From positions 681,987 to 745,986 of the forward strand of contig OX638295.1 of the NCBI GenBank assembly GCA_951812345.1: 64,000 nucleotides of DNA, given 5' to 3'. Source of the stretch: Rhodothermales bacterium. GTDB lineage: Bacteria > Bacteroidota > Rhodothermia > Rhodothermales > VXPQ01. Below are positions 18,929-30,519 of the stretch, piece after piece (the first letter of the stretch is position 1; each line of letters begins with the position of its first letter). The notes under the pieces are model-generated. The model was given only the letters and a program-made list of their open reading frames with translations, ran no database searches and had not been told where the DNA came from. A program made the translations under genes and the position numbers.

Positions 18929-19172
18929 TCAGGTTGTAACTGACTTTATGCAATATGCCTTATTGCTATAATAGCATATACCCTATTGACATAATTACAT
19001 ATACGTATTTGACTTTATGTCAGTTACTAACGGATCTGACAGAGGGCCGGGCCGGGGAGCCGCTCCGTGTCGATCGGACGGATTTCACCGAAATGCAGGG
19101 CCTGTCCGCTGCGGCGCTTTCGAGGTTTCCGGCCAGGGTTTCTGTGTAGGGTTTTCGGCCAAGCGGACCCCG
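18929..19172. repeat. AT-rich repeat family 3, copy 1 (similar to 30199-30432)
   Basis: TCAGGTTGTAACTGACTTTATGCAATAT...TTGACTTTATGTCAGTTACTAAC then diverged GC-rich continuation to GCGGACCCC. Confidence 0.8.
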
Positions 19173-19520
19173 TCGCTGTCCGTCGCGGACGGCGAGGATA
19201 CGCAGGCCATGTTCGGCGAGTTGACAGCGACGAGTACAGGGAGCGAGGAATTGCCCGACGAAGTGGCGCTCCTGGGCAACTATCCGAACCCGTTCAATCC
19301 GCACACGACGATACGCTATGCATTGCCGAAGGCGGGCGAAGCGCGGCTTGTGGTGTACGATCTGGTCGGTCACGAGGTGGCGGTGCTTGTCGACGAACCG
19401 AAATCCGCAGGCCATCACACGGTGCGCTTCGATGCGGCGGACCTGCCCAGCGGCCTCTATATCTACCGGTTGCAGGCGGTAGACAAAATCGTTGCGCGGA
19501 CCATGATACTTGTGAAGTAG
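19173..19520 (+). pseudogene. Orphan T9SS (Por) type A C-terminal sorting domain
   Basis: LLGNYPNPFNPHTTIRYALP...VYDLVGHEV...LPSGLYIYRL...TMILVK with no passenger domain. Confidence 0.75.
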
Positions 19521-20625: not shown

Positions 20626-21948
20626 ATGCCTCTTGAAATTATTGTTGCCTTGGTAGCGGTCGCCACCGTTGCCCTGCTAATCATACTGATTCGGACCCAC
20701 GGAAATCTTCGTTCCCTGCGCACGAAGTACGCAGCCATCATTAACATTGATGCCGAAGTACAGAAACGTACGGGCGAACGGGATACCATTGTCAAGGATA
20801 CTGAAAAACTCCGAACAGACTACCAGGACAAACGCCGGGTCTTCGATCGCCTGAAAAGCGAAGTCGCACTGTACGAAGACAAAATGGTGTTCATCGAACA
20901 GGGCATCTACGAACCCCATTTTGATTTCACCGACCCGGAAGAATTCAAGGAAGAGATTAAGTCAGTACGTGCCGAACAGAAGGCTATGGTCAAAAACAAG
21001 ACTGCCGTAACCTGCGACATCGAATGGCACGTCGGGGGAAGCAAGGCTCAGGGTAGAGTAATGACCGGGAGAAATATCCGGTTGACCCTACGGGCGTTCA
21101 ACGGAGAATGCGATGTCGCAATAGCGAATGTGCGTTGGAATAATGTCGTCGCTATGGAAAAACGCATCCGCCGTGCCGCCGAACAGATCGACAAACTGAA
21201 CAAAAGCAATCAAGTCGTTATCGAAAAGGCGTATGTCGATCTAAAAATCAAGGAACTGCGTCTGACGCACGAATACAGAGAACGTCAGCAAGAAGAAAAA
21301 GAACATCGACGCGAACAGGCCCGGTTGGAACGCGAGGAAAAGAAACTTATCGAGGAAGCAAAGGCCGCCGAGCGGGAAGAAGAACGTTACCGCAAACTAC
21401 TCAAAAAAGCACAGGCGGAAGCGCAGAAAGATGCCGAAAACGCCGAACTGCAAGAACGCATCGCAGAATTGGAACACTCCCTTGAAGAAGCATCTTCGAA
21501 GACGGAACGTGCGAAGTCAATGGCCGAACAAACACGTGTCGGCCATGTCTACGTCATTTCGAACATCGGATCGTTCGGCGAGAAAGTCGTCAAGATCGGA
21601 ATGACACGTCGGCTGAACCCCGACGACCGGGTGAAGGAATTGGGGGATGCGTCCGTTCCTTTCATATTCGATACCCACGCCATGATCTACACGGATGACG
21701 CACCTGCAATGGAAACGGAACTGCATCGGCGTTTTCATACCCGCAGGGTTAATGCCGTGAACATGCGCAAGGAATTCTTCCGTGCTGACCTCGAAGAAGT
21801 GGCAACTGCGATCCGGGAACTGGACCCGAACGCTACCTTTGTCATGAATGCCGAAGCCCGCGAATTCATGGAGACGCTTGCTATCCAGGAACGCCAAGGC
21901 CAAACTCTCGAAGCCGAAGTGGAAGCAGATTTCCCCTTGTCGATATGA
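20626..21948 (+). CDS. DUF4041 + T5orf172 (GIY-YIG-like) domain protein
   Basis: N-terminal TM, LRAFNGECD, coiled coil, GHVYVISNIGSFGE..VKIGMTRRL.P.DRV.ELGDASVPF.FD.HAMI. Confidence 0.85.
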   Translation: MPLEIIVALVAVATVALLIILIRTHGNLRSLRTKYAAIINIDAEVQKRTGERDTIVKDTEKLRTDYQDKRRVFDRLKSEVALYEDKMVFIEQGIYEPHFDFTDPEEFKEEIKSVRAEQKAMVKNKTAVTCDIEWHVGGSKAQGRVMTGRNIRLTLRAFNGECDVAIANVRWNNVVAMEKRIRRAAEQIDKLNKSNQVVIEKAYVDLKIKELRLTHEYRERQQEEKEHRREQARLEREEKKLIEEAKAAEREEERYRKLLKKAQAEAQKDAENAELQERIAELEHSLEEASSKTERAKSMAEQTRVGHVYVISNIGSFGEKVVKIGMTRRLNPDDRVKELGDASVPFIFDTHAMIYTDDAPAMETELHRRFHTRRVNAVNMRKEFFRADLEEVATAIRELDPNATFVMNAEAREFMETLAIQERQGQTLEAEVEADFPLSI

Positions 21949-22447: not shown

Positions 22448-23444
22448 CTAGAAAGGAAACCCAGAATGGGGTCCATGAGTGTTCGTTGGAGGAACAGGAA
22501 AAAGATGCTCGTACATGAAGCGTCCCAACAGAAGAATCCAATGTATGAGGTCTGTTGGCAGTTTGTCCTTATCTTTGTGGGGCGCATACCGAAAGTTACT
22601 GGCTGATGTCGCCGGGTTCCTCGATTAGCTTCACCTGATTCAAGGCTTCTTCAAGCCACCCTTCGTGCAGGTATTTGTTACCCTCGCCAGGGTCGTTGAG
22701 GTTCACGAAGGCCGTGTAGGTGCTCTCCTTTATTCTCCTTGCCAATTCATTCCACTCAGCTTCAGCCTGCTTTTTATTATTGGGCGGGGCACTTGAGGGC
22801 GACAAACACTGATCGAAGATTCGCCGGATGTCTGCTTCCACTTCCGCCCTGAATGCCACATATTCCTTGGCGAACGCCTCGGACTCTGCAACTATTTCGC
22901 TTCGGAGTGAATCAGGCAAGGCTGCGTATAGCTTGGCAACGTCGTGCCCTGCATTGAACCTGAAGGAGCACGTCTCCCGAAAGGAAGCATGAGTCGAAAC
23001 TGCCTTCAGACACAATTCCACCCCCAGTATGACGTTGGTCATCATCACCCGTTCTCTGTCAAGGTGATTACCTTGTGCGAATCCCCAGATCTTCTCCATT
23101 TGCATCGAATTATAGAAGGTGAATCGGTCGAGGGGCCAGATCGTAGTGCAGGAGTCGGTCAGCAGTTGCCCGACTTCTGCCATTCGGTAGCTCTCGCCGA
23201 TTTCAGACATCGAGTGGTAATCCAAGAGCTTTCCCGACATGTAGTAGATGTTGCCACGTTGCCAAAAATTGTGGCGTTCAGCCGTATTGAACCCCGGTAG
23301 CAATACCGGTTCTGACAGCTCGAAGTATCTGGATTGACTGCTTCTCCTCTCCTCTACGAGATTGAAGGAGTACGGCAGTCTGGTTCTGAGGTAATCCATC
23401 CAAGTCTTTCCATCTTTCAGGTCGTAGTAGCTGGGTTCAGTCAT
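22448..23444 (-). pseudogene. HEPN-like protein with apparent 1-nt frameshift near 22597
   Basis: LGVELCLKA...GHDVAKLYAAL; after the TAA at 22596-22598 a shifted frame reads FRYAPHKDKDKLPTDLIHWILLLGRF... to TAG at 22448. Confidence 0.55.
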
Positions 23445-23456
23445 GTTGTTCGCCTA

Positions 23457-24023
23457 GGGAATTATATGGTTAACTTGACAGGTTGGATTTCACCTTGCGG
23501 GCGGCAGCGGCCTGCGGACCATCGCTCGCGATGTCGGCCGAAGAGCCTTCTGCGGGCTTGACGTCCCTGGGCGTCGATTTCTCTTCCTTGTTCCGGTTCA
23601 TGAGGTCAGGTCCCGGTGCAATTTCATGGACGAGACCCCCTTCAGGTTCGTCGTCGAAAGATACAAGGCGAACACCCATTTGCGCAGCGGAAGCCTGCTG
23701 TGTTGCATCGTAGTCCCCGTTCTTACGCTGAAATATGAGCGGCAGTCCGGACACCAGTAAGGCATGGGCTTGCGGTTTTTAACCTCGCGGCTGTTCATGC
23801 AACCGCAACGAGGACAGAAACGCTCGCCATCGAACCAGCGGATTGTCTCGAACCACCGGCGGGCCGCTTTCTCGTCGGGAAACATCTCCAGCAGTTCCAG
23901 CAGGGATATCCCCTTGCGCTCCGATCTTCCAGGCGCTTTGCCCATAACATTTTCCTTTTGTGCGTAACCTGTAATAAAAACAGATGCTTACGTCAAATCT
24001 GTCAAGTTAAACATATAATTCCC
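23457..24023 (-). mobile_element. Internally deleted IS1595-family element (non-autonomous)
   Basis: Inverted ends GGGAATTATATGGTTAACTTGACAG / CTGTCAAGTTAAACATATAATTCCC; ORF 23598-23945 has only the Zn-ribbon/HTH N-terminus (CPRCG, YWCPDCRSYFS). Confidence 0.88.
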
Positions 24024-24130
24024 AGGTTTTTCTACTCCGGGGAACCGGAGATTCTCGAAGGGGTTTTTCATGAAGCGCGCACCTTGTTCGTTATCGGCTC
24101 GGTCAAAGCCGATGAATGAATATCTCGCTG

Positions 24131-24156
24131 CAAAACGCCCCACACGGGGCGTTTTG
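24131..24156. terminator. GC-rich hairpin with T-runs
   Basis: CAAAACGCCCC-ACAC-GGGGCGTTTTG followed by TGTTTTT. Confidence 0.6.
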
Positions 24157-24262
24157 TGTTTTTAGGGGTTTTTTTCGGGCTGCCTTTGTTTCCGGATTGT
24201 CGTCTGCAAAGGCTCAGGCGGGTAGAATGGGCTGATACAGGCCCGGCCTGGTCATTGATTTC

Positions 24263-24940
24263 TTAGGCGTCCGTCTTTCCAATGATCCACTGCACTTCAC
24301 TGCCTGTCCCGGCCGCGAATACGTCTGTGCCTGGTACGATCGCTGCCGTCGGCGATACCCATATTCCTGCTAGATATTCCGTGTTCGGAGCAAGTCCGTA
24401 AATTATCGCCTCATCGTCGCCGCGAATGACTTCAGTTCCGATGTAACCGGTTTGGGCTTCTGTTCTATCTATCTTGGCTCCGGCCGTGTAAAAAATCTGT
24501 ACTTGATCTGTAAACAAGGCGCCTTCGCCCTGATGCGCGTTCCACGAGATCAGGAGCGCTCCGGAACCTCCTCCTGATAGGATTTGCAGGTTTCGGAGTT
24601 CAGGCGTTGGCCCGAGAGAAACTGGTCTGGGTATGGTTAGATTTCCCTCTGCGTCGCTTGCCTGGAAGAGCAGGCGAAGGATGGATTGGTATACGGGTAG
24701 GTTCCCCTCGATCACATTCCACTGGGCTCGACCTCGAGTTGGATTCCACCTCTTGGCTGTTTGCGATAGTGATCGCATCCGGTTTCGCTGGGCCTGTTGT
24801 GGTGGAGTATTCGGGTTCGATGGGGAGAAGGTGGCCCGGGCCGTCGCGGTTTTGCCGCGGCGGGTCCGGGCCGCCCCGTAGATGATGTTTCCAATCTTTC
24901 CGGACGGGCGCCCGGTGATGCCTCCGAAAAGTTTTGCCAT
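24263..24940 (-). CDS. Hypothetical protein, DUF6266-like N-terminus and beta-rich C-terminus (paralog B)
   Basis: MAKLFGGITGRPSGKIGNIIY...SNPNTPPQQAQRNRM; C-terminal ISWN..YGLAPNTEY resembles FN3/Ig. Confidence 0.6.
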   Translation of the reverse strand: MAKLFGGITGRPSGKIGNIIYGAARTRRGKTATARATFSPSNPNTPPQQAQRNRMRSLSQTAKRWNPTRGRAQWNVIEGNLPVYQSILRLLFQASDAEGNLTIPRPVSLGPTPELRNLQILSGGGSGALLISWNAHQGEGALFTDQVQIFYTAGAKIDRTEAQTGYIGTEVIRGDDEAIIYGLAPNTEYLAGIWVSPTAAIVPGTDVFAAGTGSEVQWIIGKTDA

Positions 24941-25611
24941 CAGGCCACCTTCTTGCCGGCCCGCACGCTGGCCGCGCTAACTGTGAACGATGTCGTTGGC
25001 GAGAAGATATTGTCTGCAGCGTTCTGTCCCCATACGATGAGTACGTACGAATCGCCGGCAGTCAAGCCGGTGAGTGTGGCCGTCGCGTCCGCTCGGGTTG
25101 CCGCATTCTGAAAGTACACTGCTGGCGTTGGGTCCCGATCGGCTGCGGCCGCGGGGATTGCGGCGACGTTCAGCTCGTCCGTCGCAGTTCCTGGCAGTTG
25201 GGTCGTGGCCGACCACGTGAGCGTGACTTCTCCGGATGCTGCTCCGGTCGCAGCTGCGAGATTCGTGAACTCTGGCAGGAGCCCGAGCGAGATGCTGGGC
25301 GGCGCTGTCAGTAGTCGGGCCTCGTCCATGTTGTTGAGCAGAACGCTTGTCCAGGACTGGAATCCTGGCAGCTGTCCAATAGCGCGATCCCAATCGAGAC
25401 GATATGCTCTGGGACCGAGCGCCCGGACGATGGCGATCGAGTCCGAGAACTTCGTGCGCTGTATGGTCTGGTCCGAGCTCTGCGGATTGGTTGGGATGAC
25501 CTTTTGCCGGACGGTATTGAGCTTGCCGGTCCGGCCTCGAGCTTCTGAAAAGACGACGCCGGCGACCTGGCCGGATACGTTGCCGGTGATTCCTCCTGTT
25601 ACGATGCCCAT
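24940..25611 (-). CDS. Hypothetical protein, DUF6266-like N-terminus and FN3-like C-terminus (paralog A)
   Basis: MGIVTGGITGNVSGQVAGVVF...TNPQSSDQTIQRTKF; VTLTWS...LTGLTAGDSY; its stop overlaps the next start. Confidence 0.6.
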   Translation of the reverse strand: MGIVTGGITGNVSGQVAGVVFSEARGRTGKLNTVRQKVIPTNPQSSDQTIQRTKFSDSIAIVRALGPRAYRLDWDRAIGQLPGFQSWTSVLLNNMDEARLLTAPPSISLGLLPEFTNLAAATGAASGEVTLTWSATTQLPGTATDELNVAAIPAAAADRDPTPAVYFQNAATRADATATLTGLTAGDSYVLIVWGQNAADNIFSPTTSFTVSAASVRAGKKVA

Positions 25612-26176
25612 GGTCTACCTCCGTGGGTTTTGTTGTTGGTACGTGGTGCCTGGATAATTGACCGGACGAGCGCCGGCAGCCGGCTCCAGTGGCTCCGGCC
25701 TGCGGGGTCCGCTCCAATCGCTCGATTTCGTTTCGCGCAACGGGCCGTTAAGCGGATTCACAAATTTTTCATAATTGTTTTACGGGTCCTTACTTTTTAA
25801 GTCGGGTATTGCTTGTACATATGTTCCGGATCGTTCATCGATCGCGGTTCGTTGCCTTTCCTTCTGCCGTCTTGCGGCTCATGAATCGTCCAGTGATCGG
25901 GGCGGGCGGGCTACCTGCTTTCCGTCTCGCGGCTCACGGATTGTTCCTCTTTCTGCGGTCTCATGGACTCGCCAAGCCGTTAGATCGAATACGGATTGCA
26001 CATCTATCATACATCTATATGCTGGATTGTATGGCCGCATCGAGGTCGTCGCGGCGCCGTGCCTGGCCCCAGTAGCCTTGACAGTGTCCGGGCCGTTGGT
26101 TAGGTTTGTGGTTCAGTGCCTGGCTTTGGCTGGGCTTCGTGTTTGCTTCTTTTAACCCTCTTTAAGGAGTATCGTT

Positions 26177-26644
26177 ATGAAGTTCTTTGTACCTGTTGTT
26201 CTTGCTGTTATTATCGCGTTTTGTATGTCTATTTTCATTGGATGCCAATCTGATACATTGACGGATGCTTCTCTTTCTGAAGAAGTAATCTTAAATGTAT
26301 CTACTTTGTTTGGTTTTTTTGATGAAAATCTTGATGAAGGTACTATCATTTCCTTGATATTGCCTGATGGTGATGATGAAGTGATGCGAGATGCAGAGAA
26401 TACAGGAATTCTTGAAGGGGGTGTTAAATTCGGTCAGTTTACGAATGAAAATGCTCATCCTTCAACATTTGGTTTTGGCTTCGGATTAAATAAGGCAGAA
26501 CCGGATCCTGATTGTTCAGTAGGTGTTGATGGAGGTGGGAGAAGACGATTCGTGAACTGTGTTCGAGATATTCTCGATAGTTGTTCTAAAGGGGCAACGA
26601 TCATTAGAGAAGGAGATACAATCAATGCTTATTCTAAGTGCTGA
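26177..26644 (+). CDS. Lipoprotein with 4-Cys C-terminal motif (AT-rich)
   Basis: Lipobox FIGC; PDPDC...C.......CSKG...YSKC. Confidence 0.7.
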   Translation: MKFFVPVVLAVIIAFCMSIFIGCQSDTLTDASLSEEVILNVSTLFGFFDENLDEGTIISLILPDGDDEVMRDAENTGILEGGVKFGQFTNENAHPSTFGFGFGLNKAEPDPDCSVGVDGGGRRRFVNCVRDILDSCSKGATIIREGDTINAYSKC

Positions 26645-26681
26645 TTCTCCTTCTTTTTTCTTAACCTAATCCACTAAAGCC

Positions 26682-27206
26682 ATGAAACCTGTTTTTGCCT
26701 TTGTATGCACCTTTGTACTTGGATTGGTTCTCTTGACAGGGTGCCAGAGTAATATTTCTTCTGAACCATCACTAATATCGCCAAAAATTAGTGATGATGG
26801 TTTGCAGGAAATTCAGGGAATAATTGATCAACATCTTTCGCATAAAAATGCCATTCGAAATATAAATGGAAGAGAGTTGGATGTTGCTCTTGTTGTAAAT
26901 CCAACGCCTGAGGATTTTAAGAAATATCCTAATTACAGGTTTTCTGGGGAAACTGAAAGTGGTATAAAATACATGTTTCTTGTTGGGGATCATGCAACAG
27001 ACATTTCTTATGAAGCAATGGGTATTACAATATTTTCAAAAGCGGCAGTTCCTAATAATCCTGATTGTCGTGGGAATGCTAATGGTTCTAATCTATCAAA
27101 TATAGGTTATTACGAATGTACTTTTGATTTAGTGATGTCATGTGATAAAGGTGTTACAACCATAAGAATTGATGGTGAATATCATACATACTCTAATTGT
27201 GGTTAA
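26682..27206 (+). CDS. Lipoprotein, paralog of 26177-26644 (AT-rich)
   Basis: Lipobox LTGC; PNNPDC...C.......CDKG...YSNCG. Confidence 0.7.
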   Translation: MKPVFAFVCTFVLGLVLLTGCQSNISSEPSLISPKISDDGLQEIQGIIDQHLSHKNAIRNINGRELDVALVVNPTPEDFKKYPNYRFSGETESGIKYMFLVGDHATDISYEAMGITIFSKAAVPNNPDCRGNANGSNLSNIGYYECTFDLVMSCDKGVTTIRIDGEYHTYSNCG

Positions 27207-27240
27207 TTGAAAGGTATTATTAACTTCCAGGTAAGTAATG

Positions 27241-27277
27241 GCGCCCATTTTCGGCTAAATGGCTCGAAAATGGGCGC
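27241..27277. terminator. 13-bp inverted repeat between convergent genes
   Basis: GCGCCCATTTTCG-N11-CGAAAATGGGCGC. Confidence 0.6.
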
Positions 27278-27341
27278 TCTTTCGTTCGATAGATTTTGTT
27301 TTCTCGGGTCCTACTACGTTCCGGAGCGTCTGAGCGCCACG

Positions 27342-27602
27342 TCATCCGTCGATTTTGAGCACGCCGCGTTCCAAGAGAGCAAAGATGGCGTCTGCGGCGA
27401 CGCGTTCGCTCAGGCCGGTGCCGTGCTGGATGGTTCGTTCCGATGTGAATACGTGGCCTTCGCGGCTCCATAGGTACGCGTACACTCTCCACACGCTGGC
27501 CGGTCCGGACCGGCTGCATTCCTCGCGGCAGTAGCGTTCCATCCCCAACAAGCCGGCGTAGGCCTGCGCGATCTGGAGACGGTCGGGGCGTTCTCTGCTC
27601 AT
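27342..27602 (-). CDS. Small winged-HTH-like protein
   Basis: SERTIQHGTGLSERVAADAIFALLERGVL. Confidence 0.55.
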   Translation of the reverse strand: MSRERPDRLQIAQAYAGLLGMERYCREECSRSGPASVWRVYAYLWSREGHVFTSERTIQHGTGLSERVAADAIFALLERGVLKIDG

Positions 27603-27612
27603 TGGTGTCCAG

Positions 27613-27840
27613 TCAAAGACCGTCTTTCTCTGATTGCTTGCTCGCCTGGCCCCGTGAGGCTTGTCGCTTTTCCTTCAGCTCCTGGACGTATGCCATCAGC
27701 TCCGGATCGCGCTTCTGCTCCGGAGTCATCCAATCCTCGAGGTTCTCCGGGGTCATGCCCGTCGCCATGTAGATCAGGCAGAGCGCAAGCCGGTCCATCG
27801 GCCGGTCCGATCCGTATCCGCTGTCTCCTGGCTTCGTCAT
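27613..27840 (-). CDS. Small hypothetical protein
   Basis: 75 aa; start overlaps the stop of the Rep-like gene. Confidence 0.55.
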   Translation of the reverse strand: MTKPGDSGYGSDRPMDRLALCLIYMATGMTPENLEDWMTPEQKRDPELMAYVQELKEKRQASRGQASKQSEKDGL

Positions 27841-28640
27841 GATGTCTCCGTGTCTTCGAGCGGTAAGCGCCCCTGTGGCGGCCGCTTCCGGAACCGGTAA
27901 CTCTGGCCGTGGCCGCCGACGCGTGCAAATTGTCCAATTCTCCCGTCTGGCAGATCGAATGGTACGGAGTATCCTCCGTTGTCTCTACTGTGCTCTTGCA
28001 TCGCCTGAACGTAGTCGTAAATGGGAGACTTGACGTCTAAGGCCGGTGGGGAGTGGCTTCCAGTCAGCCACTTGTGCAAGAGGCCGGGGCCGATTTGCTT
28101 AATGGCCTTGGCGGTCTTGATGCATTTTTCAGCGTGGTCAAGGGTGATTCCTTCGCGTCGAATGATGTCAACATCACGCAGGCCGAAGGCCTTCAATTCC
28201 CTCTCGATCTCAGCGAGACGTGTTCTACCAAGCTTGAAGGTAGCAGGGATCTTGTTAAAAAGATCTTGGGTCTCCTTCGGTGGGTTGGGTCTCGCTGATG
28301 AGACCCCCCCCGTCTCATTCATGAGACTCCCCTGTGTAAGGTATGTACACTCGTACTCTCGCACGTTCCTGGCGCCGATGATGCGTGTGGCTGACGTGTA
28401 ATCCAACCGGCTGAGCGGCTGGGTTCTGCGCAACGTCAGCAACTCGCCGCGGTCTTCAAGGGCCTTTAGAGCGCGAAAGACTTGGGCCCTCGATGCGTTC
28501 GTATGCTTCATCATTGTTCGGATCGATGGCCACACACGCCCGAATTCGCCGATCTTACGGCTCCGGAGATCGAATAGATAGGCGACAAGCGATCGTTCGA
28601 CAGCGCTTCCTGGGGTGCAGTTCAGGACGGCTTCCGACAT
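27837..28640 (-). CDS. Putative replication initiator with N-terminal HTH
   Basis: WPSIRTMMKHTNASRAQVFRALKALEDRG resembles the HTH of phage/plasmid replication proteins. Confidence 0.55.
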   Translation of the reverse strand: MSEAVLNCTPGSAVERSLVAYLFDLRSRKIGEFGRVWPSIRTMMKHTNASRAQVFRALKALEDRGELLTLRRTQPLSRLDYTSATRIIGARNVREYECTYLTQGSLMNETGGVSSARPNPPKETQDLFNKIPATFKLGRTRLAEIERELKAFGLRDVDIIRREGITLDHAEKCIKTAKAIKQIGPGLLHKWLTGSHSPPALDVKSPIYDYVQAMQEHSRDNGGYSVPFDLPDGRIGQFARVGGHGQSYRFRKRPPQGRLPLEDTETS

Positions 28641-28675
28641 CTCGCGGAAGTGAGCACGTCGGGATAAAGGTTTTT

Positions 28676-28914
28676 GGGAATTATATGGTTAACTTGACAG
28701 GTTGGATTTCACCTTGCGGGCGGCAGCGGCCTGCGGACCATCGCTCGCGATGTCGGCCGAAGAGCCTTCTGCGGGCTTGACGTCCCTGGGCGTCGATTTC
28801 TCTTCCTTGTTCCGGTTCATGAGGTCAGGTCCCGGTGCAATTTCATGGACGAGACCCCCTTCAGGTTCGTCGTCGAAAGATACAAGGCGAACACCCATTT
28901 GCGCAGCGGAAGCC
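28676..28914 (-). mobile_element. Second, truncated copy of the IS1595 derivative
   Basis: Matches 23457-23695 in the same orientation; cut off at the IS3 end. Confidence 0.9.
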
Positions 28915-30201
28915 AGAAGTGGTCCGAAAAAACTGGACAGTTTTTCCGGCGATTTTAAGTGTACTGTCACGTCGGGTTATGCCGCCTTGGGCAGCGGTTT
29001 TCGTTTATAGAATACGTCGTCGGGCGTTCGGTTGTCAAGTCCCTGGTGCGGGCGCTCTTCGTTGAAGTAGCGCAGGTAGTCGGCGATTCCCTTCCTGGCC
29101 TCGGCCACCGTGTCGTAGGCGCGCCGGTAGACTTCTTCCTGTTTGAAGCTGCGCCAGAGGCGCTCCACGTACGCGTTGTCCAGCCAGCGGCCCTTGCCGT
29201 CCATGGATATACGCACCCCGTGCGCCTTGAGCGCACCCGTGAACGCCTCGGAGGTAAACTGCGCTCCCTGGTCCGTGTTGAACACCTCCGGCGCTCCGTA
29301 GCGGACAATGGCCTCTTCCGCCGCTTCGACGCAAAAGGCTGCGTCCATCGTGTTCGAGAGCCGGTGGGCGAGCACCTTGCGGCTGTGCCAGTCGATCACG
29401 GCTGCGAGATAAAGAAAGCCTTTCGCCATAGGGATGTACGTAATGTCCGCCGCATAGACCTGGCCGGGCCTTGTCACCTTGAGAGTTCTGAGCAGATAGG
29501 GATAAATCTTGTGTCCTTCCCCCGGAGACGACGTGCGGCGCTTCGGGTAGATGGCTCTCAGGCCCATAAACCGCATAAGGCGAACGACGCGGCTTCTGGC
29601 GATGCAAACGCCTTTTGCCTGAAGCTTGCTCTTTATCGTGCGCGATCCGCTCGTGGGACGCTCCATGTAGAGGCGGTCGATCTCTTTCATGACGGCAAGG
29701 TTCTCTTCGCTCTCTTGCCCGGGACTGTAGTAGGCCGTCGAACGGCTCAGTTCGACCAGTTTGCACTGGCGAATGACCGGCAAGCGATGCGTGCGCGCTA
29801 TCATGGCGCGGCGCTCGGCTAACGGTCGCGACCGAGCGCCTTCGATAAAAAATCCTTCTCCATCGACAACTCTCCGATCTTCGCATGAAGCGCCTGGATC
29901 TTCCTGTCGCGTTCGTCGGGAACGTTGCGGCTTCGAACGAACGCCTCCTCGGCGCTCTCTGTGAGCTGCTTCTTCCAGGATTGTATCTGGTTTGGATGCA
30001 CTTCGAAGCGTTCTGCGAGTTCGGCCAGCGTGCTGTCGCCGCGCACGGCGGCGAGGGCTACCTTCGCCTTGAACGAAGGACTATGAGTTCTGCGTGTGCG
30101 TCTTGACATGGGTCTCGTCTGGTTGATTGCGTCGAAACAAGGTCGCAACACTACACCTTAAATCCCGCCGAAATCTGTCCAATCAACCCGAACCACCTCT
30201 C
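28915..30201 (-). mobile_element. IS3-family insertion sequence (orfA 29819-30109, orfB 28977-29804)
   Basis: Imperfect inverted ends AGAAGTGGTCCGAAAAAACTGGACAG / TGAGAGGTGGTTCGGGTTGATTGGACAG; rve motifs ADITYIP, DQGAQFTS, ERLWRSFKQE; T6 run near the end of orfA as frameshift candidate. Confidence 0.93.
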
Positions 30202-30432
30202 AGGTTGTAACTGACTTTATGCAATATACCTTATTGCTATAATAGCATATACTCTATTGATATAATACCATATATCCATTTGACTTTATGTCAGTTACTA
30301 ACTTATTTGAGAGAGGGCCGGTCCGTATCGACCGGACATATTTCGGCGGAATGCACGGGTTGCCCGCTGCGGCGCCTGCGGGGTTTGTGGGCAGGGTTTT
30401 CGGATAGGGTTTTCCGATCAGGGCGGACCCCG
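30199..30432. repeat. AT-rich repeat family 3, copy 2
   Basis: Direct, diverged copy of 18929-19172. Confidence 0.8.
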
Positions 30433-30519
30433 TACGTCGGGTCGCGCGTATGTTGCGGGCGAATAACGGATGTTTTAGTCAGAGTATCCTATAGCGCTTT
30501 GTCCACGTCTCCACACCCT

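Follow-up and report, generated by a model that had tools for sequence, protein, structure and literature searches.

A circular mini-replicon probably opened within its own rep gene and held between two IS1595-family copies in a Rhodothermales chromosome

Insertion sequences (ISs) and transposons are known to fuse replicons. Cointegrates of the Tn3 and IS26/IS6 types are formed in this way, and high-frequency-recombination (Hfr) strains arise when IS copies carried by F and by the chromosome recombine. To our knowledge, cointegrate formation is not an established property of IS1595 elements. Other minimal replicons, such as pCRESS-type plasmids and the dif-integrating, Xer-dependent elements of the CTXphi class, have HUH Reps and use site-specific recombination at tRNA or dif. 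Here we analyze positions 24024–28675 of a 64,000-nucleotide (nt) stretch of a Rhodothermales chromosome (contig OX638295.1; the whole stretch is called the window). In this segment, a replication gene (rep) and two DUF6266-like genes are enclosed by two copies of a 567-bp IS1595-family derivative, IS567. We assign a probability of about 0.85 to the reading that the segment is a once-autonomous 4.6-kb circular mini-replicon, opened within its own rep, captured via IS567 and fixed in the chromosome between the two IS567 copies.

Two IS567 copies and the 8-mer inside their junctions

The boundaries of the segment are built as follows.

23457–24023, minus strand: IS567 copy 1, a 567-bp non-autonomous IS1595-family derivative with 31-nt terminal inverted repeats
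24024–24031: target-site duplication copy 1, AGGTTTTT, which is also rep codons 14–16 on the minus strand
28668–28675: target-site duplication copy 2, AGGTTTTT
28676–28914, minus strand: IS567 copy 2, in direct orientation, the first 239 nt only, 100% identical to copy 1
28915–30200, minus strand: IS3-family element of 1286 bp, with orfA at 29819–30151 and orfB at 28977–29804

Both inner junctions are flush with intact IS567 ends, and the same 8-mer lies directly inside each of them. The left junction reads ATAATTCCC/AGGTTTTT/CTACTCC and the right one CGGGATAA/AGGTTTTT/GGGAATTATATGG. For an 8/8 match at two positions set by the IS ends, the calculated chance is ~1.5e-5. The outer left flank of copy 1 is TTCGCCTA, not AGGTTTTT, and the outer right flank of copy 2 has been removed by the IS3-family element. 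Together the two IS567 copies form a direct repeat with a spacing of 5219 nt. An earlier reading of these letters without database searches (the sequence-only reading) had described two same-orientation copies of one IS1595 derivative around the segment and an 8-mer directly inside both junctions; both descriptions are confirmed. It had also raised an assembly artefact as an objection to the 8-mer match. Contigs that cross the joints (left flank/IS, IS/segment and segment/IS) are present in independent Logan assemblies of four public runs, an example being a contig of 5040 nt over 23666–28705 from run X1, and the arrangement of the 8-mers is therefore not an assembly artefact.

The inverted repeats of IS567 (23457–23487 and 23993–24023) are 90% complementary. 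Its open reading frame (ORF; 23945–23598, 115 amino acids [aa]) keeps only the N-terminal zinc-ribbon part of a transposase (Zn_ribbon_IS1595, PF12760, E 1.3e-5, 25.5 bits against a cutoff of 25.4), a part that can be aligned with the 310-aa transposase of a full-length relative. The DDE_Tnp_IS1595 (ISXO2-like) catalytic domain has been deleted from IS567. We therefore regard IS567 as a derivative resembling miniature inverted-repeat transposable elements, which needs transposase in trans. The full-length relative measures 1239 bp, is present in seven copies in the genome, and is 70% identical to IS567 in the shared part. Its transposase contains DDE_Tnp_IS1595 (PF12762, E 1.5e-39), and the two elements have near-identical terminal repeats with GGGAATTAnnnGGTTAACTTGAC in common. 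Four intact copies of the relative are bordered by 8-bp AT-rich target duplications (TATTTAAT, AAAGATAG, CAAAAAAG and TTAGTGAT), which bears out the earlier statement that IS1595 elements typically duplicate 8 bp of target. A longer, parent-like version that is 96% identical to IS567 is carried by a congeneric genome, G007.

In the 2.82-Mb single-contig genome, these two are the only copies of IS567. The second ends at 28914/28915, where it is cut by the IS3-family element, itself present in many genomic copies, and the lost remainder was found nowhere in the 2.82-Mb genome. Outside the window, at G000:C1:2546305–2550909, three IS1595-family copies are nested. Two of them, in direct orientation, share the 8-mer TATCTTAA on their outer flanks and have inverted A/T-rich 8-mers on their inner flanks, which suggests a further IS-mediated rearrangement in this genome.

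Closure of the circle and its state in the host

When position 28675 is joined to 24032, the segment re-closes to exactly 4644 bp, the length that the sequence-only reading had given as approximate. The predicted sequence of the closed-circle junction is GGGATAAAGGTTTTTCTACTCC, and closure restores a rep ORF of 292 codons. The break had been placed 27 bp upstream of rep, which proved wrong: the IS stands after codon 16 of the 292, and the misplacement arose because an internal ATG at 28640 was taken as the rep start. The first 33 residues of the restored Rep match the Reps of two metagenomic relatives, both Logan contigs with ~73% nucleotide identity to the segment. One, L003 (4431 bp), bears an 80%-identical homologue of the Rep-like protein; the other, L009 (5502 bp), bears a homologue of the 225-aa DUF6266-like protein. 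The restored ORF begins MKNPFENLRFPGVEKPLSRRAHFREMSEAV, compared to MKNPFRNARFPGAEKPLSRKAHFREMSEAI in L003. Homologues of the 225-aa protein were also found on the 3.25-Mb chromosome of a Rhodothermales metagenome-assembled genome (MAG), which is G007 (loci L006 and L012), and on a 99.9%-identical metagenome scaffold (L010).

We aligned L003 and L009 with the re-closed segment, written twice in a row; both remain collinear with it where closure was predicted. Each of them carries GAAAAACCTTTATCC once, uninterrupted and in the same codons; the centre of the predicted junction, GGATAAAGGTTTTTC, is its reverse complement. Judged from these alignments, the uninterrupted GAAAAACCTTTATCC is the preserved empty site, and the duplicated target is AAAAACCT (AGGTTTTT on the plus strand). 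L009 has a terminal direct overlap of 30 nt, which equals k−1 for an assembly with k = 31 and closes the contig to a circle of 5472 bp, and its 286-aa rep ORF is complete only when the contig ends are joined. A search for circular relatives, proposed with the earlier reading, has in L009 yielded a complete circle with the core genes. The claim that the target was a circle is supported by the ORF restored on closure, by the collinearity of L003 and L009, by their single uninterrupted 8-mer and by the circular L009. Further points in favour of a captured replicon are its occurrence in just 2 of 12 congeneric genomes, the small contigs (≤8.3 kb) on which 47 of 49 close DUF6266 homologues reside, and the exchange of cargo around a constant core.

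The features of the element, in window order, are these.

24024–24071, minus strand: rep codons 1–16 (MKNPFENLRFPGVEKP), cut off from the remainder of the gene and matching the N-terminal residues of Rep in L003 and L009
24131–24156: hairpin resembling a bidirectional terminator, with a perfect 11-bp stem and a 4-nt loop; it separates rep from the second DUF6266 gene
24263–24940, minus strand: DUF6266-like protein 2, 225 aa, with a very basic N-terminal arm
24940–25611, minus strand: DUF6266-like protein 1, 223 aa, with an N-domain of unknown fold and a C-terminal FN3 domain
25612–26176: non-coding control region, 565 nt, partly conserved; candidate origin or promoter
26177–27206, plus strand: variable cargo, two paralogous lipoproteins of 155 and 174 aa
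27342–27602, minus strand: conserved 86-aa protein, possibly a winged-helix DNA binder, with weak replication-initiator PHROG matches; kept in L003 and L009
27613–27840, minus strand: 75-aa protein, downstream of rep
27837–28667, minus strand: rep codons 17–292; the annotated 267-aa ORF starts at the internal ATG 28640

The core common to L003 and L009 comprises the non-coding region (~565 nt), two DUF6266-type genes, the hairpin, rep, a 75- to 89-aa gene and the 86-aa gene. Two blocks of the control region (25718–25864 and 25935–26140) are conserved in relatives at 75–82% identity, and two pairs of degenerate repeats, 55 nt apart, lie at 25867–25889/25922–25944 and 25936–25953/25991–26008. 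TRF gave no repeat array in the intergenic region, Rfam gave no match on the segment, and the non-coding regions from four relatives aligned too noisily for iterons to be defined. Cargo varies while the core stays: the relatives lack the two lipoproteins, and the same slot is occupied by a 77-aa ORF and a 118-aa membrane protein in L003 and by five other small ORFs in L009. The GC content of the lipoprotein genes is ~35%, compared to 55–63% for the core. Since the slot holds unrelated small genes in relatives, composition and position together indicate that the lipoproteins are recent cargo from a low-GC source. The two lipoproteins share Cys positions.

When all element ORFs were scanned with Pfam, PHROGs, NCBIfam and PADLOC, no more than weak signals for Rep and FN3 emerged. 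No integrase, HUH protein, packaging ATPase, Mob or Par was detected by Pfam, PHROGs or NCBIfam, in agreement with the sequence-only reading, which had recognized no integrase, HUH relaxase or packaging ATPase. HUH and catalytic Tyr motifs are absent from the element's Rep (Pfam, PHROGs), and the element has no toxin–antitoxin genes.

Read depth in run X1 is 43.1 for the segment and 45.5–45.9 for the flank, and 85.4 for the 239 nt common to both IS567 copies. Segment depth thus equals flank depth, a comparison that had been put forward as a check. The insert is real and single-copy, with no excision detectable in these Logan assemblies. Two genomes out of 12 in the genus have genes of the element. 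None of the 11 congeneric genomes contains the left flank, and for this reason there is no empty chromosomal site for comparison; the right flank is core. The element sits in a strain-specific, IS-rich island. A 440-aa DUF4041/T5orf172 protein encoded nearby (20626–21948) matches the PD-Lambda-1 anti-phage defence model (E 3.9e-164), and its gene, together with the adjacent 282-aa ORF (22596–23444), is the flank missing from all 11 congeneric genomes. The ~11-kb strain-specific island, with the defence gene and the captured element, is bracketed by copies of a ~235-nt direct repeat (18930–19175 and 30201–30433, ~79–85% identical), the second of which starts exactly at the IS3 end 30201; the repeat contains a long palindrome (GTAACTGACTTTATGCAA...TTGACTTTATGTCAGTTAC). 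In run X4, a loose end that starts with the outer 8-mer TTCGCCTA has sequence without a match in the genome and was dismissed as coincidence.

Several observations weigh against the capture of a circular replicon. L003 has no terminal overlap. Contigs with the closed-circle junction are lacking in the Logan assemblies of runs X1–X4, which drop rare variants. The left flank is strain-specific and the right outer flank lost, so the outer target duplication of the donor IS is uncheckable. Matches of Rep are borderline: HTH_36 scores 24.0 bits, below its cutoff of 25, and phrog_270 ('replication initiation protein') is matched at E 7.5e-6 over residues 15–74 only. Rep has no match in NCBIfam or PDB, nor by tblastn in PLSDB plasmids and GenBank phages. 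Finally, G007 (OZ244993.1) contains a 73%-identical copy as chromosomal fragments, split over two loci ~1.9 Mb apart.

Locus one of G007 (L006 10833–10880) has the control region, both DUF6266 genes and rep codons 1–15; it breaks within ~2 nt of the same 8-mer and continues as unrelated DNA. The DNA abutting codon 15 is read, from its sequence, as a fragment of an IS481-like transposase gene. Locus two (L014 1480–1520) begins near rep codon 50 and immediately abuts core DNA of the chromosome; its rep is riddled with stop codons, and it also has the two small genes and a portion of the control region. The sequence-only reading had named relatives embedded in a chromosome as grounds for giving up the circle. 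G007 does hold chromosomal fragments, yet their break, too, falls within the 5' part of rep, and the circle is not refuted by them. They fit a second, older capture in this part of the gene. The shared break region could be a target hot spot of the IS1595 family or could reflect selection for rep inactivation.

The proximity of the two breaks, with the other half of the G007 copy resuming only from about codon 50, would also be compatible with entry of the element by site-specific integration at the 5' end of rep, at an attachment-like or nicking site, with the IS copies being secondary. We consider this improbable. The junctions are flush with intact IS ends, the 8-bp duplication has the length made by the IS1595 family in this genome, and no recombinase is encoded (Pfam, PHROGs, NCBIfam). 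Moreover, the 8-mer is an AT-rich island in a rep of ~60% GC, like the AT-rich targets of the IS1595 family here, and selection for rep-inactivating events would also cluster survivors at this place.

A second alternative is that the segment was never a circle, but had been carried by a composite transposon or belonged to a genomic island, with the 8-mers a coincidence or the scar of a tandem duplication. The strain-specific, IS-rich surroundings next to the PD-Lambda-1 gene are compatible with such an origin, as is the chromosomal location of the related fragments in G007. However, a composite transposon would duplicate its outer, not its inner, flanks, and after a tandem duplication AGGTTTTT would be expected on the left side of copy 1, a position taken by TTCGCCTA. 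As closure restores a conserved ORF, and as relatives, one of them circular, are collinear across the closure, we hold this alternative to be very unlikely.

For the capture of a circular replicon, we propose that IS567, mobilized in trans, joined the circle to the chromosome at the AT-rich AAAAACCT in rep codons 14–16. This could have occurred by replicative transposition of a chromosomal IS567 into the circle, by IS567 insertion into the free circle and subsequent homologous recombination with a copy in the chromosome, or by an IS26-like targeted fusion. Each route would produce the order IS, 8-mer, linearized circle, 8-mer, IS, and the routes are not separable because the donor's outer duplication is lost. 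The term 'IS1595 cointegrate', used in the sequence-only reading, is accurate for the direct IS copies and for the duplication on the captured replicon's sides; a cointegrate formed by replicative transposition is not distinguishable from insertion plus recombination. The break parts rep from its start codon, its first 16 codons and the upstream hairpin/promoter region, leaving an N-truncated 267-aa ORF. If Rep is the initiator, as its weak matches suggest, the break may have silenced it; replication is probably disabled, so that the chromosome would tolerate the insert. A later IS3 insertion and deletion would then have removed most of the second IS567 copy.

DUF6266-like proteins and the small circles that carry them

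The genes for the 223- and 225-aa proteins overlap and are paralogous, their products being 30% identical to each other; the two make up ~30% of the element. A family search (HMMER, full library) gave 299 representative clusters, nearly all of 205–230 aa. Pfam DUF6266 (PF19781) is matched by 37 of 75 aligned relatives (best E 1e-17), and the window's two proteins have no PF19781 match at E ≤0.1. In an hhalign comparison of the family profile with a bona fide DUF6266 member (278 bits on PF19781), 188 columns were aligned at 99.2% probability and E 5.4e-20. By this profile comparison, the proteins once called 'structural-like' are distant homologues of DUF6266, an uncharacterized Bacteroidota family, and the homology spans both of their domains. 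The sampled classical members of DUF6266 are chromosomal and lie next to DUF6943, whereas the branch of the window resides on circles of 3–5.5 kb. In two complete Bacteroidota chromosomes (L099 6188–7553 and L100 6349–7568), the classical DUF6266 gene stands directly beside the DUF6943 gene (E 1e-50), a conserved two-gene pair of unknown function without a PADLOC match. The literature searched contains no mention of DUF6266 or PF19781.

An AlphaFold (AF2) model with a predicted local distance difference test score (pLDDT) of 93.5 shows an N-domain of beta-hairpins and helices followed by a C-terminal FN3 domain. Conserved residues of the N-domain are Arg, Lys and Gln, and the counted net charge of the first 60 residues is +4 in one paralog and +11 in the other. 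Foldseek on the full model recognized the FN3 domain alone. Folded by itself (pLDDT 87), the N-domain gave no PDB match (best E 0.69), and neither a capsid-type fold (jelly-roll, HK97) nor a viral structural family was found for the DUF6266 proteins with Foldseek and PHROGs.

All 27 metagenome loci of the family are on contigs of 1.1–5.4 kb. In a collection of 5.8 billion proteins, 47 of the best 49 matches are on contigs of ≤8.3 kb, and the two exceptions are this genome and G007. Searches with tblastn found no DUF6266 homologues in 72,556 plasmid records (PLSDB) or in 50,697 GenBank phage records, and scans of IMG/VR, for which the family alignment was used along with Rep and the 225-aa protein, yielded a single distant match and two spurious ones. 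Many of the small DUF6266 contigs are circular and code for a small tyrosine recombinase and a single DUF6266 protein. Their Rep belongs to the HUH rolling-circle proteins of phage G2P/ORF2 type (PF23343), with the motifs FLTLTY, GAPHYH and YLSKYIAK in the 3-kb circles. DUF6266 is the common hallmark of mini-circles with two unrelated replication modules and therefore follows the pattern typical of an element's structural or DNA-handling gene rather than that of cargo; its proteins may bind or coat the DNA of the element. A third architecture is seen in a 5578-bp contig of a Rhodothermales MAG (L094, G222:C105), which has a tyrosine recombinase, an unassigned ORF of 304 aa and two DUF6266-like paralogs (315 and 217 aa). 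In addition, a 13-kb IMG/VR contig, a small viral contig, has three ORFs with the DUF6266-like N-terminal motif NPxTxxQ..R..F (L011 2222–6865), and their neighbours resemble, by eye, a tail-fibre protein and a lysin.

The lengths of the circular contigs with an HUH Rep and one DUF6266 gene are all divisible by 11. This set consists of whole contigs (L016, L019, L020, L023, L024, L029–L032, L035, L066, L067, L070 and L074), and the lengths are distributed as follows.

2959 bp (269 x 11): six distinct sequences, <70% identity, GC 0.33–0.45
3003 bp (273 x 11): L074
3333 bp (303 x 11): two distinct sequences
3564 bp (324 x 11): two lineages, 74% identical
3608 bp (328 x 11): L070

The 3003-bp, 3608-bp and second 3564-bp circles were fetched after the rule of 11 was guessed. 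Identical circle lengths recur across lineages that are <75% identical, and two circles of 2959 bp with 63% identity align with just three 2-nt gaps per side. Terminal overlaps of the circles measure 30, 40, 55, 99, 123 and 127 nt; as these differ, several assemblers must have been involved. When the circles were examined by a Fourier test for sequence periodicity at 11 nt, the outcome was marginal (an estimated ~1.5x the expected power, p ~0.05), and we do not claim such a periodicity. Neither the window circle (4644 bp) nor L009 (5472 bp) has a length divisible by 11. These two lengths equal 129 x 36 and 152 x 36, a shared factor with a post hoc p of ~0.02 for n = 2 circles of the winged-helix-Rep class. 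Nothing relevant on 'multiple of 11' or on Rhodothermales cryptic plasmids was found in the literature searched.

The free element could have formed virus-like or satellite-like particles, with DUF6266 proteins coating or encapsidating its DNA, and the captured copy would in that case be a dead provirus. The main argument is that DUF6266 is the sole gene common to the mini-circles with a winged-helix Rep and those with an HUH Rep and tyrosine recombinase; in addition, it encodes a basic N-terminal arm joined to the FN3 domain of the AF2 model, and the lengths of the HUH-class circles are quantized by 11 nt, as expected for a stoichiometric nucleoprotein. The 72,556 plasmid records without homologues point in the same direction. 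On the other hand, the proteins match no PHROG, no GenBank phage and almost nothing in IMG/VR, they have no known capsid fold (Foldseek gives FN3 alone and, for the N-domain, nothing), and the window element is without lysis or packaging genes. Classical DUF6266 genes also occur alone next to DUF6943 in Bacteroidota chromosomes, and 4644 and 5472 bp break the rule of 11. We put particle formation at clearly less than even odds, and a plain cryptic plasmid ranks slightly ahead of it.

The same observations allow a more specific and slightly more doubtful proposal, in which DUF6266 proteins would be the FN3-based, DNA-coating subunits of an unrecognized minimal class of virus-like or nucleoprotein replicons. 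No known capsid fold would be involved. Their one-gene HUH branch would accommodate exactly 11 nt per subunit, and the window element would belong to a two-subunit, winged-helix-Rep branch, whose two known circle lengths have the factor 36 in common, and have been caught dead by the IS. A coverage of 11 nt per subunit would, if true, explain both the multiples of 11 and the equal lengths in diverged lineages.

Significance and comparison with known systems

The locus is a clean case from nature in which an entire replicon has been captured by an IS, with the empty site kept in free relatives and with a non-autonomous IS1595 derivative as the IS. The chromosomal copy also names a host, a Rhodothermales genus with a cultured-genome context, for circles of 3–5.5 kb that are common in metagenomes and, in the collections searched, found neither in PLSDB nor among GenBank phages and hardly at all in IMG/VR.

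If the quantization of lengths holds, it would be a DNA counterpart of the 'rule of six' of paramyxoviruses, whose genome lengths are integer multiples of a set number of nucleotides due to a nucleoprotein that binds a fixed number of bases, and it would give a direct handle on the role of DUF6266. The analogy is loose: in the ~3-kb DUF6266 circles the quantum would be 11, the molecule is circular DNA, the regularity concerns lengths alone, and the window element falls outside the rule.

The fusions made by Tn3, IS26 and Hfr formation resemble this locus in the direct IS copies that bracket a replicon, in the duplication on the replicon's sides and in a stable chromosomal copy. Here, in contrast, the IS is a non-autonomous element of 567 bp, the insertion lies inside rep, and one IS copy has been truncated by an IS3-family element. 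With pCRESS-type plasmids and the CTXphi class, the locus has in common a minimal replicon as a chromosomal insert, but it has no HUH Rep and no recombinase, and entry was via an IS. The element also resembles small cryptic plasmids with winged-helix (iteron-type) and phage O/DnaD-like initiators. It is like them in size, in having one Rep with a putative winged helix near its N terminus (HTH_36, PHROG 270), in the adjacent non-coding region with its degenerate repeats and in the variable cargo slot; it differs in that its matches are borderline, PLSDB holds no match, Mob, Par and toxin–antitoxin genes are lacking, and two DUF6266 genes are present. The mechanism of capture is of a known kind, and the element captured is a member of an undescribed, metagenome-wide family.

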